Assembly: GCA_037447095.1 (NCBI GenBank)
Contig: JBBIHI010000001.1
Location: 1-38,798, forward strand
DNA length: 38,798 nt
Source of the DNA: Thiotrichaceae bacterium
GTDB lineage: Bacteria > Pseudomonadota > Gammaproteobacteria > Thiotrichales > Thiotrichaceae
Direction: 5' to 3'
A program made the translations under genes and the position numbers. The first letter of the stretch is position 1. Each line of letters begins with the position of its first letter. This document shows positions 4,940 through 17,988 of this stretch, in pieces. Under the pieces are notes generated by a model, which ran no database searches, was not told the origin of the DNA, and saw only the letters and a program-made list of their open reading frames with translations.

Positions 4940-6376
4940 TTAGTGGGCAACTGCCGGAATGACTGCATCAACAGGCTTGGTGCCAACGACAGTTTTCCAC
5001 ACGTTGTAAGCCATAATGAACATACCGGCCAGAACCAGCACACCACCAACGAAACGCACGAAGTAGAACGGATACATGGCTGCCACAGACTCGACAAAAC
5101 TGTAGGTCAATGTCCCGTCAGGGTTGACTGCACGCCACATCAAACCTTGCAGTACACCAGAAATCCACATGGCTGCAATGTAGAACACCACACCGATGGT
5201 CATGACCCAGAAATGCACTTCAATCAGTTTGGTGCTGTACATTTTTTCACGACCAAACAGTTTTGGGATCAGCGCATACAGGGAACCGATAGAAACCATG
5301 GCTACCCAACCCAAAGCACCGGAATGGACGTGACCGATAGTCCAGTCAGTGAAGTGGGACAGTTCATTAACAGTCTTGATGGACATCATCGGGCCTTCAA
5401 AGGTAGACATACCATAGAAGGACAGGGAAACGATCAGGAAGCGCAGGATAGGGTCAGTACGCAATTTGTGCCATGCACCAGAGAGGGTCATGATACCGTT
5501 GATCATACCACCCCAGGATGGAGCCAGCAGGATCAGGGAGAACACCATACCCAAGGATTGGGTCCAGTCAGGCAGCGCAGTGTAGTGCAGATGGTGGGGG
5601 CCAGCCCACATATAAGTGGAGATCAACGCCCAGAAATGCACAACAGACAAACGGTAAGAATAAATCGGACGTTGCGCCTGCATTGGCACGAAGTAGTACA
5701 TCATCCCCAGGAACGCTGCTGTCAGGAAGAAACCAACCGCGTTGTGGCCGTACCACCATTGAACCATTGCATCAATCGCACCAGGGTAAACGGAGTAAGA
5801 CTTCCACCAGTCATGGCCACCGAACAATACAATCGGAATCTCGGCATTATTGACCAGATGCAGCAAAGCGATGGTCAGGATATACGCCCCAAAGAACCAC
5901 AGTGCCACATAGATGTGTGAAGTCCTGCGTTTCATGATGGTGCCAAAGAACAGGATTGCATAGGCCACCCATACAATGGTGATCAATATGTCAATCGGCC
6001 ATTCCAGCTCTGCATATTCCTTGGAAGAGGTAATCCCCAACGGGAACGTAATCGCCGCCAGCAAGATAATGAGCTGCCAACCCCAGAAGACAAAAGCAGC
6101 CAGCTTGTCGGAAATCAAACGCACGTGGCAGGTACGCTGTACAGCATACAGCGAGGTCGCAAACAGGGCGGAACCCCCGAAAGCAAAAATGACTGCATTG
6201 GTATGCAGCGGACGCAGACGGCTGAATGTCAGTTCAGGAATACCAAAATTCAGTTCCGGCCAACGCAACTGTGCAGCAATGATCACGCCCACCAACATGC
6301 CGACGATCCCCCAGACCACCGTCATAATGGCAAACTGCCGCACGACCTTGTAATTATAGGTCTGCTGATTTTCCAT
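4940..6376 (-). CDS. ccoN: cbb3-type cytochrome c oxidase subunit I
   Basis: [45 protein letters not shown]. Start ATG at 6376 follows a GGAGG RBS. Confidence 0.98.
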
Positions 6377-6492
6377 AAGTCCCTCCGAAAAAGTTGAACA
6401 CCTCACCGGGGAGCCATGTAATCACACAAGCACGCTGTGTGAAATCACACACTCCGGTGCGTCAAGCATCTACTAGAGCCGTGCTAACATGT

Positions 6493-6506
6493 TTGACTAA
6501 AATCAA
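6493..6506. promoter_or_regulatory. FNR box (proximal) upstream of ccoN
   Basis: TTGACTAAAATCAA (minus strand TTGAT-TTTA-GTCAA). Confidence 0.85.
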
Positions 6507-6552
6507 CATTGGCTGTGGCAGATTGGAGACACTGATACAAAATTCAAATTCG

Positions 6553-6566
6553 ATGACTTATATCAA
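6553..6566. promoter_or_regulatory. Second (distal) FNR-like box upstream of ccoN
   Basis: Minus strand TTGAT-ATAA-GTCAT, 60 bp from the proximal box. Confidence 0.6.
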
Positions 6567-6588
6567 GTAATCTCCAATCTTCTGGCGT

Positions 6589-9495
6589 CTAAACAGGACG
6601 CGAACCTGTTGAATTTCTGGTGAAATAAAGCGCAGCCGACAAAGCGTGTTGGTTAAAATCAACCCGAACCGTACTATCAACCGGGCTTTGCCTTATGCCG
6701 CCCTGTGCCCATTCCAGATATGGCACGACCATTTTGTCGCGCTCCTGAACCGTAAGGCTGTCCAGGAAAGCAAAACCTTTCAGGCAAGCTTCCGCAAAGT
6801 TCCGGTAGTTCCATCCCCCGTTTCCGTGTGCGTACATGACTGAAGCAACGGCAGCGACCGCTTCCAGATAGACTGCGGTCATGTAATCTGCCCTGCCATC
6901 CGTTTGCTGCCAGGTTGTAAAGCCACCATCCTGCATTGACTGGAACTGCACAATCCACTCGCACATTGCGTTGGCCTGTTCCAGCCATTCGGAGCGGTGT
7001 TCCATCTGCCAGCAGGCAACCCATGCCTGGGCAAGCCAACTGACCTGATCAGCGCGGCGCTTGTACTGGAAACGATGCCAGTAATACGCCTGCGCCCGTT
7101 GCAACTTTCCTGCATCAAGCTTGCTCAATCCCGCCTGACAGGCCAAGGCCAAAGCCAGCAGCACCTGCCCTGGGATATAATCCTGGTAAACATCCTGCGG
7201 GTAGGAAACATTGGGGTAAATGTAATTCTCGATCCGGCCATGTGGATCAATGGCTCCCCACAAGGTTTCCGCCAGTTCTGCAGCAAGGCTGGCATCTTCC
7301 AGGGAACACGAATCCTGGCTACTCAACGCCATCAGTAACAGGGAAGCACCTGCCAGTGTGTCATAACGGCGTTCTGCGGGATTAACCGTTTCCGCCAGCC
7401 AGCATTTCCCCGCATCCCGCTGCACGAAGCCTTTAAGGTAAACCAGCAACGCATCCAGTTTGCCTCCATCAACCACCGCCATCCCCTGTTGGCGGGCGCG
7501 TGACAATACCCACGCCGCATGGGCTGTGCGTACATTATCCATGCTACCCGTCACCTGATGTGCAAACGGCTGGTAATAAAAGTGCATACCTCCCTGTTCG
7601 GTCTGCTGGCGCTGGATATACGCCGCCCAGCTATCGCATAGCGGTTGCAAGCGGGTTTCCATATCACGGTCTGCGGCAGATGGGCGGGGGAAAGCTTTTT
7701 CCAGCCATTGTACGTTCTGCCCATCATCCAGCCAGGTACTGCATTCATAGCGCCGCCACGCATACGGCCCTTCGGTAATACCGGCCTTGTCCAGCAAGGC
7801 TTCGACATATCCCTTCTCATCGTAACCTGCTGTTACCGGCCAGTCAGGCAGTAACAATGCCTCACGCCCACCCTGATGAACCATCAACGCCTGCTCGGCA
7901 AAACGCACTGGCGTCATGACTTCATCCGGCTGGTACGCCCCCAGTTCCAACGGCGCATACAACAGGGAAATTTTTACTTTCAAGCCATCCAGATCACCTA
8001 CGTCCAGGGTAGAGGCAAACCGTTCATCATGCAGTGCTGCTTCTGCCAATACCCGCAAATCACTGTCCAGATCGCCGACCTGTTTGCCCATGCAACCCAG
8101 CATCCGGTAGCCGGAATAAATGCTCAGGAACAGGGAATCCAGCGCCGGGCACAAATTCTCTGGCAACGCCCCGCCCCTGACTGCCTGCCCAGTAACAGCC
8201 GCCTGTATGTACGCCCGTGCCCGCTGGCCAATCAGCCGCGCAATCGCCGCAGACTCAAACCAGCGGGGTTCAGTACCTGAGCGCCCTACCCCACTTTTCT
8301 GCCAGTCCACATCGGCCTCAACCAGCTTGAAAACATCATGCCGGTACAAGGTATGTGGTTCGAAAGACACCAGCCCGGCATTATTGCGGTAGGCATACTG
8401 GAACTGTTGCCCACTGACCGCAATACCCGGCATACGTGGCAATGCGCCCCCCATTTTGTCGGGACGTTCATTGCTGCGCACCACAATCCCATAGCGGTCA
8501 TTATCCAGATCACCTACCGAGCAGGCTTCCAGACGGGAAAAGAATGTCACCGCAATGGCGCAGCGTTCCAGCATGGCAATCCCTTCCGCGCCATGTGGCA
8601 AATGCAAACCGGCCTGCCAGCTTGCCAGCACCACATCCCTGGCGGCGCTATACACCGGCTCGCCCGGAAAATGCCAGAAACCATCCCGCGCCGGACGCAC
8701 CTGGATATTGTCACGCTCACGCAAACTGACGTAACAACCACCCTGATGGCTATATTGCCGGTCAAGCGTTTCCGGCGGGCGTAACAGTTTTCCCGATGCC
8801 AGAAATTCTCCCAGTACCTGACGGGCAAGCGCCATAGGTGACAAACCTTCTGCTGCCGCCTGCTCATGCCACTGTGGCGTAACCCGTGTGTAATGCTTGC
8901 TCGGGTTCAGTACTGGCCTCGGCTCATTTTCCAGGCACGGGGCAATGTCACGGTCAACATCAAACAAGGTTTCCATGTGATAACCCTGTTCCTGCATCAA
9001 GGCAAAACCGCCATACCAGTCAAACCGTACCAGACAAACGCCCCCTTCCACCCGGAATCCTTCTGCTTCCAGAATATCGCGGCACTTTTGCATGGAAATC
9101 CCGGAACTGACCGAATCATCAATCAGGATCACCGGCTCATCGCGCTTGGCACGCCCTTCGATCAGCTTCAGGGAACCGTGTGCCTTACGTTCCTTGCGTA
9201 CCAGCAACCCTTCATAACGCCCGTTGGATTGCATGACACAGGCTGTCAGCAAGGGGATGGCGGTCGTACCATAGGTTGCAATTTGCCTACCCTCAAACTT
9301 GTCCAGTAATTCCAGCAGGCAGGCGGCAGCCAGATTCAGCCCCTCGTGGGAAAGTGATACGCATAAGGAATCCAGCATCCAGCGCCCGGTGGTGCCATCA
9401 CGGGACAGGACAGGTTGGGTTGCGGTTCTATACAAAATGCCATCGCGGACAATCAGGGATAACAGGCGGGCTTTTTTCTCAGGTAGGGTATCCAT
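6589..9495 (-). CDS. Multidomain protein: orotate-PRTase-like domain + two AMMECR1 domains + C-terminal alpha/alpha-toroid (six-hairpin/terpene-cyclase-like) domain
   Basis: aa ~1-185: LVRKERKAHG..LIEG and PRPP loop VILIDDSVSSGISM. aa ~218-393: GGCYVSL, YGIVVR, GGALP, NAGL, LYRHDV. aa ~415-590: LFLSI..MLGCMG, AALHDERF, ALLLP, LLDKAGI. aa ~612-960: helical repeats with QW-like YIQRQQTEQGGM and WIVQFQSMQDGGF, plus YIPGQVLLAL and VRVDFNQHALSA. Domains called by motif recognition only. Confidence 0.8.
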   Translation of the reverse strand: MDTLPEKKARLLSLIVRDGILYRTATQPVLSRDGTTGRWMLDSLCVSLSHEGLNLAAACLLELLDKFEGRQIATYGTTAIPLLTACVMQSNGRYEGLLVRKERKAHGSLKLIEGRAKRDEPVILIDDSVSSGISMQKCRDILEAEGFRVEGGVCLVRFDWYGGFALMQEQGYHMETLFDVDRDIAPCLENEPRPVLNPSKHYTRVTPQWHEQAAAEGLSPMALARQVLGEFLASGKLLRPPETLDRQYSHQGGCYVSLRERDNIQVRPARDGFWHFPGEPVYSAARDVVLASWQAGLHLPHGAEGIAMLERCAIAVTFFSRLEACSVGDLDNDRYGIVVRSNERPDKMGGALPRMPGIAVSGQQFQYAYRNNAGLVSFEPHTLYRHDVFKLVEADVDWQKSGVGRSGTEPRWFESAAIARLIGQRARAYIQAAVTGQAVRGGALPENLCPALDSLFLSIYSGYRMLGCMGKQVGDLDSDLRVLAEAALHDERFASTLDVGDLDGLKVKISLLYAPLELGAYQPDEVMTPVRFAEQALMVHQGGREALLLPDWPVTAGYDEKGYVEALLDKAGITEGPYAWRRYECSTWLDDGQNVQWLEKAFPRPSAADRDMETRLQPLCDSWAAYIQRQQTEQGGMHFYYQPFAHQVTGSMDNVRTAHAAWVLSRARQQGMAVVDGGKLDALLVYLKGFVQRDAGKCWLAETVNPAERRYDTLAGASLLLMALSSQDSCSLEDASLAAELAETLWGAIDPHGRIENYIYPNVSYPQDVYQDYIPGQVLLALALACQAGLSKLDAGKLQRAQAYYWHRFQYKRRADQVSWLAQAWVACWQMEHRSEWLEQANAMCEWIVQFQSMQDGGFTTWQQTDGRADYMTAVYLEAVAAVASVMYAHGNGGWNYRNFAEACLKGFAFLDSLTVQERDKMVVPYLEWAQGGIRQSPVDSTVRVDFNQHALSAALYFTRNSTGSRPV

Positions 9496-9530
9496 TATTT
9501 CAGTGCCTTATTGTTGGTTTATGCGTATAA

Positions 9531-9562
9531 GCAACGGGATACCCTGACAGGCATCCCGTTGC
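9531..9562 (-). terminator. Intergenic RNA hairpin (stabiliser or leaky terminator)
   Basis: Minus strand GCAACGGGATGCC-TGTCAG-GGTATCCCGTTGC (13 bp, one G-U), followed only by a weak TTAT tail. Confidence 0.65.
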
Positions 9563-9576
9563 AACAGGCTCAGCGT

Positions 9577-10293
9577 TTAGCAGCGTGAACCGCCGGAATG
9601 GCCACCGCCAGAGTGGCCGCTATTGCCACTACCACAACTTGGTGGAGACGATGTAACAGGCGGATCAATGCGGCATTCAGGGCGTACTTCCGTTTTCACC
9701 TCGGGGCGTATTTCTGGACGCACCTCGGGGCGGCATTCCGGGCGGGCTTCAGGACGCACTTCTGGTTTTACCTCTGGGCGCACTTCAGGCTTCACTTCGG
9801 GACGTACCTCGGGACGGCATTCCGGGCGGGCTTCGATGATCACTTCCGGCTTGACCTCAGGACGTACTTCAGGACGCACTTCCGGTTTCACCTCTGGCTG
9901 CACTTCGGGACGAACCTCTGGTTTCACCTCCGGGCGTACTTCAGGGCGTACTTCGGGGCGAACCTCACATGATGGCGGGGTATGGCCACCGTGACCATGA
10001 CCACCGACACCACCGCCGTGGCCACCGTTGCCTTGGCCGCCATTGCCACCGCAACCACAACCGCCGCCCTGGCCTGACCCGTTACCAGCATCCTGGATCA
10101 TTTGCATCAAGGATACGACCAGTTGCAACAATGCCATCATGCCTTGTTGGTCAAAACCACCCATCCCCATCCCGAAAGACGGACACGAACTCCCTCCGCT
10201 AAAGTTTCCCATCGCATTTGACCTGGAGGTGTACGCATCCTGCGCTCCCCCAATGTCCATGGATTTATATCCACCATAATTGCTATTGATCAT
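9577..10293 (-). CDS. Gly-rich low-complexity protein with (P-E-V-R/K)n tetrapeptide repeats; function unknown
   Basis: Strong RBS AAGGAG 6 nt before the ATG. The repeat DNA varies mostly at synonymous positions of this frame, and the gene is co-oriented with the downstream 968-aa gene. Confidence 0.85.
   Translation of the reverse strand: MINSNYGGYKSMDIGGAQDAYTSRSNAMGNFSGGSSCPSFGMGMGGFDQQGMMALLQLVVSLMQMIQDAGNGSGQGGGCGCGGNGGQGNGGHGGGVGGHGHGGHTPPSCEVRPEVRPEVRPEVKPEVRPEVQPEVKPEVRPEVRPEVKPEVIIEARPECRPEVRPEVKPEVRPEVKPEVRPEARPECRPEVRPEIRPEVKTEVRPECRIDPPVTSSPPSCGSGNSGHSGGGHSGGSRC
9670..9969 (-). repeat. Coding tandem repeat, 25 x 12 nt (PEVR/PEVK/PECR...)
   Basis: Units such as cccgaagtacgc, cctgaagtacgc, ccggaggtgaaa, ccagaggttcgt on the minus strand. 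Confidence 0.95.
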
Positions 10294-10580
10294 AGCTAAC
10301 TCCTTTTACAGTTAAGACTGGTGCCGACATACGCCTGCACCACTTACGGTTGCCAGCTAAAACGCAAGGAAAGTCTTTCCCTCCGACTGGCAGTACAACC
10401 GTATAAAGGATTGAATCCGCACACTACCGCACCAACAATGGGCGGTAAAACCAGCAGGACAAACGGCTTTTCCAGTTATCGCCCCAACCCGCCCGGCTAC
10501 CCAAACCCGGCATGTCACTGATCAACACGGGTGTTATGTTCAAAACACCCCCTTATGATCAGCCTGATACTGCTATTCCG

Positions 10581-11810
10581 ATGCGTAAGAAAACCAGCCA
10601 GATTCATGTTGTCCACATCATTACCAGCCTGGCAGCAGATGGTACGGGTAGCATGTTGTACCAGCTTTTGACCCACACCAACCGCCGCCAGTTTTTCCCG
10701 GTCGTCATTTCACTGGAGACGGAAACCCCGCTTGCCCGCAAAATACGCTCGCACGGCATTCCGGTGCATTGCCTGAACATGGTGAACAGCCTCAGCTCCG
10801 GCTGGCATATCCTGCGGTTGGTACGCCTGTTGCGCGAACTGACGCCCGACATCATCCAGGGCTGGATGTATCACGGCAATCTGGCCGCCTCCATCGCCAA
10901 TCTGGCGCTGTCCAACCACTACCCTGTACTGTGGAATATCCGTCAGAGCCTGTATGGCCTTGAGCATGAAAATATCCCGAAGCAGTGGGCCATCCGCCTG
11001 TCTGCCAAGCGTTCCAGTAAACCTGAACGGATTTTGTATAACTCCTACCTGAGTGCGGAACAGCACACCAATTTCGGCTTTGATGAAAGCAAAACCCACA
11101 TCATTGCCAACGGTATCGACACCGGGAACTTTGTCCCCAACCCATTTGCGGGCCATACCATCCGTGAAAGCCTTAGCATCCCGCCGGATGATTTTGTCAT
11201 TGGCATGGTCGCGCATTACCACCCCATGAAGAATTACACCCTGTTCCTCGAAGCGGCCAATTTTCTGGGAAAACACCAGCAGCGCGTCCACTTTGTACTG
11301 GCGGGGCAACAAGTCGACCGCAGCAACCGTGAGTTCAACACCTTCTTTGCCCGCCACCCCCACCTGCAAGGCAGGTTGCATCTGCTGGGTCAACGTGAGG
11401 ACATCCCCGCGATCCTCAATGCACTGGATGTTTTCACCCTGACCTCTTCCCATGGCGAAGGCTTCCCCAATACCATCGGTGAAGCCATGGCTTGCGGCAT
11501 TCCCTGCATTGCCACGGATATTGGCGATACACCGCGCATTATTGGCAACACCGGGCAGACCCTGACGGCAGCTACGCCCTCCCAACTGGCCTTTGCCTGG
11601 CTGGAATGGATACGTGCGGGGAAAACCTGGAGGCAGGAACAGGGGCAGCGGGCAGCACAACGCATACGCCGCCATTACGACATACGCGACATCACCACCC
11701 AATACCAGGAGCTATACAAGGAAATCTTGCAGGAAAGGCAATATAGCGAGGAAACTCAGCCGTTCATGAAAAACGACTCATCAAACATTTCAATGAACCT
11801 TCTGGCCTGA
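10581..11810 (+). CDS. Glycosyltransferase family 4 (GT-B fold)
   Basis: VVHIITSLAADG, PDIIQGWMYH, HPMKNY, EGFPNTIGEAMACGIPCIATDIGD (E-x7-E). Start uncertain (10512, 10536 or 10581). Confidence 0.9.
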   Translation: MRKKTSQIHVVHIITSLAADGTGSMLYQLLTHTNRRQFFPVVISLETETPLARKIRSHGIPVHCLNMVNSLSSGWHILRLVRLLRELTPDIIQGWMYHGNLAASIANLALSNHYPVLWNIRQSLYGLEHENIPKQWAIRLSAKRSSKPERILYNSYLSAEQHTNFGFDESKTHIIANGIDTGNFVPNPFAGHTIRESLSIPPDDFVIGMVAHYHPMKNYTLFLEAANFLGKHQQRVHFVLAGQQVDRSNREFNTFFARHPHLQGRLHLLGQREDIPAILNALDVFTLTSSHGEGFPNTIGEAMACGIPCIATDIGDTPRIIGNTGQTLTAATPSQLAFAWLEWIRAGKTWRQEQGQRAAQRIRRHYDIRDITTQYQELYKEILQERQYSEETQPFMKNDSSNISMNLLA

Positions 11811-16293: not shown

Positions 16294-17245
16294 TCATTCA
16301 TTTGGCTGGAATGCCCACCACTCCAGTCGATTCAATGCCCCAGTGTGCCCGCACGACCTGTCCCAGCCGTTCCGGGTTGGAGGCATCCATGCTGCTGATG
16401 AAGTAACGGGGGTTTCTTCAGTGGTCTTATCCTTGCATTCACGGATGGCAGTGACAGCGATAATGCTGGTCAGTTTTGTCCAATGGGGATGGTCTTTCTT
16501 CAGCCAGCCAATGTCGGAGGTAGCCCACACGATGCGGGTTTCAATCCGCCCATGCCCGCCATCATAAATGGTATGGCCAATGGGAGGGCAGGTACTGGCC
16601 GATTCAAAGAACAGCTTCACGTCCTGATGGAGCGTGCCCTGGTTGCCTTTCAGGCTGAGCAGGTAATCGGCTTGCTGGTCGACGATCTGCTGGGCAATGG
16701 CCGTTTGGCAACCCATCGCATCCAACGTCACTACCGCTCCTGTAATGTTCAGTTGCATCAATAGTTTAGGGATGGCAGTGATTTCGTTGGATTTATCATC
16801 CACGCGCTGTTGCCCCAGCACCAACTGATTCTGGGTCGCCCAGGCACTGACCATGTAGATGGCCGCCTTGTCCGAAGCACTGCCCAGGCTGCGGCGCAGG
16901 CATTTGCCATCAATCGCGATGATTTCACCATCACTGAGGTCGGACAGGTCAGCCACCCAGCGGCTGAAACATTCACTGAACTGCTGCGTGTCGATCAGGC
17001 CAAAAACGCGGCCAAAGGTATCGTGTGGGGGGGATGCCGTGTTGCAACCCTAACACCTCCGTGAACCATTTTTGCTTGGATTTGCCGAACAGCTCAATGG
17101 AAGCCCAATCATCCGCGCCGCAAATCACGGCGCACAGGGTAATGAAGAAGATGTCACTGAGTTTGTGCCGCTTACGGCGGTTCAGACGTGGATCAGGGAT
17201 GGAGGCAAAATGGTCAATAATGGCGGCGGTGGGGCAGAGTTTCAT
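16294..17245 (-). pseudogene. ISAs1-family transposase, frameshifted twice and C-terminally truncated
   Basis: FASIPDPR..KRHKLSDI, CAVICGADDW, IAIDGKCLR, KSNEITAIPKLL, DAMGCQ, LKGNQGTLH, GHGRIETR, RAHWGIE spread over three frames. Shifts fall in C-runs near 17027-17033 and 16408-16412; homology is lost after HWGIE. Confidence 0.92.
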
Positions 17246-17314: not shown

Positions 17315-17454
17315 AGGGCGACCGCATTTGACTTTTTAAATCACTTTAAAATCAATAGATTGATTACTTTTTAGGCATTGGTGCATTGATTATATCTCAT
17401 TGATTCATAAGAGTTTAAAATTTATATGCATTCACCGTGAATGCGATTACCCTG
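17315..17454. mobile_element. Short AT-rich MITE-like element with ISAs1-like imperfect terminal inverted repeats
   Basis: Left end AGGGCGACCGCATT against reverse complement of right end AGGGTAATCGCATT (11/14 identical); internal IHF consensus AATCAATAGATTG at 17350-17362. Confidence 0.55.
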
Positions 17455-17547
17455 CGTGAGAGAAGACTCTGTATTGTGCTAATATGTGCAGAGAGTCATA
17501 ATCAGCACACCATCTTTGTATATGTCATCAGTGTTAATGGGAAAGGA

Positions 17548-17988
17548 ATGACCACCAAAAATTCTGCGGGTAGTTTCGATATTATTCTCGGCATGGAAGA
17601 AATTAGCGGACGGAATAACGTCTGTATTGCTTTCGGGGCGGGGTTGTTCAGAAAACTTGGCTGGTCATCGGGCGACTGGATACAGTTTGACGTCAGCAAG
17701 GAAAGTTTCATTTCATTCCGCAAGATTCCAGAACCGAGTGAAACTTCATTCTATGCCAGAAAAATCAAGTTAACCTCAGGCTCCTATAGAATCTGTTTCT
17801 ATTCAAAGTATTACAGCTTCCCGCAAGACACATCCTTTGCCAAGGAAAAGGCCACCTATAATATTGAATCACGCACGCTGACGCTGGAAATTCCCGAAGA
17901 ATATTGCCTGCGCCCGGAAGAACAACCGCAAAATGAATCAAAACCACTCAGCGTTGATGATATAGCCGCTGCTTTCAGAAAACTCTGA
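17548..17988 (+). CDS. Hypothetical protein, possibly AbrB/SpoVT-like swapped-hairpin fold
   Basis: Open frame; VCIAFGAGLFRKLGWSSGDWIQFDV resembles the AbrB pattern. The ORF-track start at 17437 lies inside the MITE end and is unlikely; the true start is uncertain. Confidence 0.6.
   Translation: MTTKNSAGSFDIILGMEEISGRNNVCIAFGAGLFRKLGWSSGDWIQFDVSKESFISFRKIPEPSETSFYARKIKLTSGSYRICFYSKYYSFPQDTSFAKEKATYNIESRTLTLEIPEEYCLRPEEQPQNESKPLSVDDIAAAFRKL

Follow-up and report, generated by a model that had tools for sequence, protein, structure and literature searches.

A rare two-gene cassette that pairs a Glu-Pro repeat protein with a PRTase-AMMECR1-toroid enzyme in Thiotrichaceae and other bacteria

We analyzed a stretch of 38,798 nucleotides from a Thiotrichaceae bacterium (GenBank assembly GCA_037447095.1, contig JBBIHI010000001.1, positions 1 to 38,798 of the forward strand), referred to below in its full length as the window. 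Two adjacent genes in it had been put forward in an earlier, sequence-only reading as a candidate system in which a large enzyme modifies a small repetitive protein. Both open reading frames (ORFs) proved to be intact and co-oriented on the minus strand, where that reading had placed them, between ccoN and a GT4 gene. It had also described a strong ribosome-binding site (RBS) for the repeat gene and a weak one for the enzyme gene, in agreement with the AAGGAG found 6 nt before the former and the TAAGG found 10 nt before the latter. The features of the cassette are listed in Table 1.

Table 1. Features of the repeat protein-enzyme cassette in the window (residue numbers refer to the encoded proteins)
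Feature	Positions	Strand	Remarks
Repeat protein, 238 aa	9577-10293	minus	Ser/Gly/Asn-rich 108-aa N-terminus, 25 tetrapeptides, short Gly/Ser tail; likely substrate
N-terminal extension	9970-10293	minus	Amphipathic LLQL-type stretch; Thiotrichales members only; no family-wide leader
Repeat array, residues 109-208	9670-9969	minus	Family unit E-[V/I]-x-P
RBS of repeat gene (AAGGAG, strong)	10300-10305	minus	Read from sequence
Intergenic hairpin, 14 pairs	9531-9562	minus	Without U-tract; likely transcript-stabilizing or attenuating element
Enzyme, 968 aa, PRTase-AMMECR1-AMMECR1-toroid	6589-9495	minus	Profile matches and structure model
OPRT-like type I PRTase domain, residues 1-195	8911-9495	minus	R100, K104, D126, D127, S131 and G132 invariant (77 sequences)
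AMMECR1 copy 1, about residues 215-400	8296-8853	minus	Without Cys; conserved S257, R259, R267, R270, D331, Q364, E379
AMMECR1 copy 2, about residues 415-605	7681-8253	minus	Keeps G467-C468-x-G470 and D490-x-R492-F493
(alpha/alpha)6 toroid, about residues 610-963	6607-7668	minus	Conserved R656, D772, R808, W820, Q823, E878, R935, R944, D946, H950

The array had been summarized as (PEVR)25. There are indeed 25 tetrapeptides, and the formula simplifies them: 9 are PEVR, 6 are PEVK, 3 are PECR, and 7 are other variants, with Glu at position 2 in all 25 and Pro at position 1 in 22. All four Pro codons (5, 6, 5, and 6 uses) and both Glu codons (16 and 9) are employed. Such scattered synonymous codons indicate that the repeat is maintained at the protein level and not by DNA slippage, and the codon spread rules out a chance tandem DNA repeat. 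An array of this type occurs once in the 2.53-Mb assembly. A protein search with the whole repeat protein returned 75 proteins, mostly low-complexity matches, and an Atlas search gave only scores under 0.8. The Ser/Asn/Gly-rich N-terminus is confined to the Thiotrichales repeat proteins, and a profile built from four Thiotrichales N-termini did not detect that of the window's protein. This region is reminiscent of harpins, a likeness not confirmed by profile. A QQLMQVLQTLL stretch similar to its amphipathic LLQL-type stretch occurs in a small Gly/Ser/Cys-rich ORF without repeats (G000:C132:1260-1601, L221).

We then compared 160 loci that encode homologues of the enzyme (the best 80 of 162 and the best 80 of 203), of which 94 were informative in having at least 3.2 kb of sequence upstream of the enzyme. 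A strict filter detected a repeat ORF in 109 of the 160 loci and in 90 of the 94 informative ones. Homologues without a repeat neighbor were to be expected if the pairing was wrong; instead, the count reached 92 of 94 when the looser arrays of L064 and L085 were included. These 94 loci form 82, 28, and 12 groups at 95, 80, and 70% identity, respectively. Among the 109 loci, the repeat ORF lies directly upstream of the enzyme in 22 cases, about 2 kb upstream in 84, and downstream in 3, and thus gene order differs between loci while the pairing persists. When 60 genomes from a single Myxococcota family were searched afterwards, four new full-length enzymes came to light, each with an upstream array (4/4). 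As a control, 60 relatives were searched with the repeat, yielding five weak matches, none of them an E-[V/I]-x-P array. In genome G025 the enzyme gene precedes ccoN, and a similar small ORF starts at a contig end beside the GT4 gene; an assembly gap has therefore probably swallowed the repeats in this genome. Together, these data strongly support the pairing of enzyme and repeat protein. Phylogeny was inferred with FastTree from 48 rows, namely the window, 41 hand-chosen loci, and six proteins of a second subfamily (see below). The genomes that contain L064 and L066 are marked as unpublished; each of these two loci contributes one row to the counts and the tree, and no conclusion rests on them.

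Across the family, the repeat unit is E-[V/I]-x-P, preceded by Pro, Thr, or Val, with Ala, Arg, or Lys at x. Its only constant residues are the Glu, the aliphatic residue, and the Pro, and the spacing of motifs is free (4, 6, 8, 12 residues and more). The sequence-only reading had named Arg, Lys, and Cys beside Glu as possible acceptors of a modification. Among 100 distinct repeat regions, Lys or Arg occupies x in 775 of 2,025 motifs and is absent from that position in 11 of the 100 proteins, and Cys lies inside the repeat region of only 4. Lys, Arg, and Cys thus not being conserved, Glu is left as the sole constant reactive side chain. The same 100 regions have no shared leader: a median of 16 residues separates the last Met from the first motif, and the N-termini vary in length and sequence. 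At L068 and L085, where two different B12 radical-SAM genes flank the enzyme and repeat genes, the units are longer (PIxEVSPD).

The enzyme was modeled with a mean predicted local distance difference test (pLDDT) score of 91.8, and each of its domains has conserved pocket residues. Database names for its homologues are given by domains only. The architecture first proposed, a phosphoribosyltransferase (PRTase) domain, two AMMECR1 domains, and a toroid, was borne out for the PRTase, for AMMECR1 copy 2, and, in the structure model, for the toroid; AMMECR1 copy 1 stayed below the Pfam cutoff.

The PRTase domain shares with PyrE, the orotate phosphoribosyltransferase (OPRT), the type I fold, the catalytic loop, and the motif for phosphoribosyl pyrophosphate (PRPP). 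Foldseek template modeling scores on the target were 0.84 to 0.85 against PyrE structures 5hki, 2wns, and 2p1z. The PRPP loop R-K-x-x-K-x-H and the DD-x-x-S-G motif are present, leaving the PRPP site intact, and R100, D126, and D127 are kept even in the second subfamily, at about 30% identity. The domain differs from PyrE in scoring below the TIGR00336 cutoff (56.3 bits against 106.8; E value, 3e-15), in its fusion to three further domains, in its rare and patchy occurrence, and in lacking the D-R motif. In OPRT this motif has an orotate-binding role; the D-R pair of 2wns and 3qw4 aligns with R157-F158-D/G159 of the enzyme and is not kept.

AMMECR1 copy 2 matched PF01871 with 64.5 bits (cutoff, 25), and its C468, D490, R492, and F493 are invariant; the Arg that precedes the GC is replaced by Leu in the window's protein. 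Copy 1 scored 20.6 bits, below the cutoff, reached an E value of 3e-4 when scanned alone, and has a weak second stretch of similarity to PH0010. In some second-subfamily proteins, the region corresponding to copy 1 gives the best Pfam match, and copy 1 carries three conserved Arg residues (R259, R267, and R270). The two copies gave no significant alignment to each other. With the AMMECR1 family (PF01871; TIGR04335; PDB 1vaj, 1wsc, and 1zq7) the enzyme thus shares the fold as well as the GChG and DxRa motifs, the latter in copy 2, and it differs in having two copies, the first without Cys, and in scoring below the cutoff of TIGR04335, AmmeMemoRadiSam protein A (65.6 bits against 99). Accessible passages of an earlier family analysis propose the GChG and DxRa motifs as the active site and the conserved Cys as a group carrier (PMC2034487). 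There, and in the accessible part of a second paper, AMMECR1 is predicted to modify an RNA base, and no reaction is described as demonstrated (PMC2034487; PMC4075521). As the sequence-only reading had noted, the other members of the AmmeMemoRadiSam operon are missing from the cassette: neither the Memo-like protein B nor the AmmeMemoRadiSam radical SAM enzyme occurs in the window or among the recurring neighbors scanned. The partner here is a repeat protein and not Memo and a MiaB-like radical SAM enzyme.

The toroid fold comes from the structure model (pLDDT, 94.5). Its nearest folds are cellobiose 2-epimerases of the AGE family and squalene-hopene-type cyclases (Z, 27 to 29; root mean square deviation, about 3; 290 to 333 residues; 11 to 17% identity), and its fold neighbors include AGE-family sugar epimerases, GH76/GH88, and type II terpene cyclases (PDB 4z4j, 9l8i, and 8paj). 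With all of these it has the common fold, and it is set apart by that low identity and by an Arg-rich pocket of its own. For this domain, no Pfam family reached its cutoff in 51 sequences, the only matches having E values of 0.002 to 0.05 in 2 to 4 of the 51. A toroid profile run against PDB sequences gave three weak matches, none a toroid, and an Atlas search gave unnamed clusters. In one clade of distant toroid relatives that lack a PRTase, the relative is encoded tail to tail with a protein carrying a long (Asp-Gly)n tract at all seven loci (L187-L192 and L194). Other relatives occur as fusions with an ATP-grasp domain (P0342), an Asp/Asn beta-hydroxylase (P0318), or a D/G-rich tract (P0273).

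We scored 7,996 candidate proteins, of which 932 matched; the nearest named homologues are from Thiothrix and Thiolinea. The enzyme is rare and patchy among relatives, being present in 1 of 27 congeners, and cassettes with a repeat protein occur in five phyla: Pseudomonadota, Acidobacteriota, Myxococcota, Actinomycetota, and Omnitrophota. The enzyme was not found in plasmids, nor in viral contigs when these were searched with the second-subfamily profile. Mycobacterium sp. OAS707 (G061) has the cassette at two separate loci (L061 and L177), and a repeat ORF is present in both. Some myxococcal copies (L178 in G071:C37; L249/L250 in G1655:C4) lack about residues 404-635, that is, AMMECR1 copy 2, and have an internal stop and no repeat neighbor. 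The second subfamily has the same architecture at about 30% identity, and R100, D126, D127, R259, R267, R270, R656, R808, E878, R935, D946, and H950 are each kept in 24 to 27 of its 27 aligned sequences. Its profile found nothing in two class samples of 400 further genomes each, a frameshifted first-subfamily copy as the one match in a 340-genome class sample, and 13 matches, one of the second subfamily, in another sample of 400. Its gene context therefore rests on a single locus, in which an adjacent ORF of Pro-Glu-x triplets (P-E-x) continues beyond one stop codon until the contig ends.

Many of the 160 loci carry accessory genes: a B12 radical-SAM gene in 138 (of the TIGR03975 type in 56 of 61 long loci), a 2-oxoglutarate (2OG)-Fe(II) oxygenase in 64, a NodU-like carbamoyltransferase in 44, and a radical SAM/SPASM protein in 35. 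TIGR03975 and TIGR03913 both scored above cutoff in the neighbors of homologous loci that were scanned, and at L077 the TIGR03975 methyltransferase and the enzyme are fused in one ORF. TIGR03975 was above cutoff in none of five Thiotrichales genomes (the window's assembly is 82.5% complete), so the window probably holds a two-gene minimal system.

Loci of this kind invite comparison with those for ribosomally synthesized and posttranslationally modified peptides (RiPPs), especially those marked by TIGR03975, a family that we take to include the polytheonamide PoyB/PoyC and bottromycin methyltransferases. As in those loci, a small repetitive ORF lies beside tailoring enzymes, and, as expected of a RiPP, the small substrate gene is stably linked to modifying enzymes (92/94; 4/4). 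The classical leader-core layout suggested by the sequence-only reading was not supported, given the short distance from Met to first motif and the absence of a protease from the cassette and from the 22 neighbor proteins scanned (unlinked genes could serve). With no conserved leader or recurring protease found, this is not a canonical RiPP system; in addition, its core enzyme is without a described counterpart, and the window is without the methyltransferase. Exporter-type neighbors, an AcrB pump in five loci and a MacB-like permease in four, are likewise missing from the window's cassette. The genome also holds a non-flagellar type III secretion cluster (G000:C9:14450-26816, L220) in which SctV, SctJ, SctD, SctR, and SctN are above cutoff. 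SctV is above cutoff in all four other Thiotrichales cassette genomes and also in 18 of 22 congeners; type III export of the repeat protein is a lead only.

That the repeat protein is the enzyme's substrate, in some covalent role, is highly probable. On how it is modified we are more tentative. The reading that we prefer, at a probability of roughly 0.45, is that the enzyme phosphoribosylates the repeat Glu from PRPP and that its other domains process the adduct. In each E-[V/I]-x-P unit, the PRTase domain, predicted to bind PRPP and not orotate, would esterify the Glu carboxylate with the 5-phosphoribose of PRPP (+212 Da). We predict that the AMMECR1 and toroid domains bind the repeat and act on the adduct: the Arg-rich AMMECR1 copy 1 would read the repeat Glu, and Cys468 of copy 2, with the Arg/Asp/Glu/His pocket of the toroid, may catalyze a further reaction of the sugar or of the activated acyl group. 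We would expect a protein that bears many modifications as the product, and not short peptides cut out of it; our likeliest guess is that this decorated polymer serves for structure or storage or is exported. In other genomes, C-methylation, hydroxylation, and carbamoylation would come on top, with the window's genome retaining the core reaction only. Slightly more doubtful is the proposal in its fullest form, in which a single polypeptide phosphoribosylates the Glu of every unit and its AMMECR1 and toroid domains rework the adducts into a hyper-modified polymer, defining leaderless repeat-protein pathways as a class in at least five phyla and making peptide glutamates the target of AMMECR1.

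Several points weigh against phosphoribosylation of the repeat. No PRTase known to us uses a carboxylate of a protein as its acceptor, and Glu esterified with ribose would be a labile product. The conserved PRPP site fits a small-molecule acceptor or an activation-only role equally, and sugar epimerases and terpene cyclases rank level as the nearest folds of the toroid. In the second subfamily, C468 is kept in only 19 of 27 sequences. As for the pairing, the array of L155 is divergent, and L156 has none, its contig ending inside the enzyme; a Myxococcota copy with an internal deletion and a stop lacks an array, as do two further broken enzyme copies and one fragment. Many of the loci are from related Blastocatellia, yet the pairing is not confined to these, since it holds in separate clades across the five phyla. 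Finally, antiSMASH clusters called on TIGR03975 were dropped as likely false-positive RiPPs, according to the accessible part of one study (10.1101/2022.04.01.486688), and so the TIGR03975 marker alone proves little.

A less probable alternative is that PRPP merely activates the Glu carboxylate and no sugar is kept, the outcome being an isomerization (to iso-Glu or D-Glu), a cyclic imide, or an isopeptide cross-link formed through Cys468 or the toroid. The toroid is closest to AGE-family epimerases (Z, 28.8 to 29.1), with squalene-hopene-type cyclases within 2 Z units of them. A group-carrier role of the AMMECR1 Cys, as proposed in the accessible text of PMC2034487, would suit this chemistry, as would the toroid relatives that lack a PRTase and lie beside (Asp-Gly)n proteins or are fused to ATP-grasp or Asp/Asn hydroxylase domains. 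The seven (Asp-Gly)n loci are 75 to 100% identical, however, and count once, and the repeats offer no conserved Lys as a partner for cross-links.

It is similarly unlikely that the repeat is a multi-arm carrier, on whose Glu arms a ribosylated or nucleoside-like small molecule built by the PRTase would be held, tailored by the accessory enzymes, and released. PRTases, 2OG oxygenases, carbamoyltransferases, and B12 methyltransferases are all used in nucleoside and aminoglycoside pathways, and Glu has a precedent as a carrier arm in LysW-type proteins. The lack of a conserved leader and of a recurring protease would also fit. On the other hand, 25 arms spaced four residues apart are unlike any carrier known to us, the cassette contains no supply or export gene, and no TIGR03975 gene was above cutoff in the five Thiotrichales genomes. 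Least probable is an enzyme that acts on RNA or nucleotides and leaves the repeat protein unmodified, as a scaffold or a partner that binds metal: the closest match of the PRTase is a nucleotide enzyme and the accessible AMMECR1 literature predicts RNA base modification (PMC2034487; PMC4075521), but this leaves unexplained both the fixed E-[V/I]-x-P unit with its free spacers and the peptide-maturase families TIGR03975 and TIGR03913 above cutoff next door, and Memo and MiaB-like partners are absent from the recurring neighbors examined.

The system is real, widespread but rare, and undescribed in the literature searched, from which most subscription papers and all supplements fell outside the scope. 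AMMECR1 fusions are listed in the supplements of PMC2034487, which may be relevant to the novelty of the system. Conservation of AMMECR1 extends from archaea to humans, and the cassette offers the domain a candidate substrate and co-substrate, making its function directly testable with two genes. If phosphoribosylation of the repeat is correct, a PRTase acting on a protein would be a new kind of modification. The window provides the simplest version for the bench, two genes without an oxygen-sensitive B12 radical-SAM partner.

The hairpin that the sequence-only reading had noticed between the two genes was recovered; its 14 pairs include two G-U pairs in the minimum-energy fold (z, -2.94), and none of 200 shuffled sequences was equally stable. 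Lacking a U-tract, it was not called as a terminator, and it likely acts as a transcript-stabilizing or attenuating element. An Rfam scan of positions 6300-10600 gave no matches, and a sigma-70 promoter scan gave no sites.

In 6 of 13 congener loci, ccoN adjoins the GT4 gene and the cassette is absent, and DNA similarity to one congener locus ends at about 6576, just beyond the enzyme stop codon. The cassette is therefore an insertion between ccoN and the GT4 gene, best explained by the two genes forming a mobile unit. A functional link to GT4, cco, or the AcrB pump was considered and rejected, given the cassette-less ccoN-GT4 arrangement in congeners and the different flanks of the other Thiotrichales loci. 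About 80 bases past the enzyme stop codon and upstream of ccoN lies TTGAC-N4-ATCAA (6493-6506), which we take to be one mismatch from an FNR box; no terminator was called between the stop codon and this site. Farther along the window, a DDE transposase fragment (16294-16956) and a 183-aa ORF (17437-17988) lie between a gene for a phosphoenolpyruvate (PEP) synthase regulator and a Crp/FNR-family gene.

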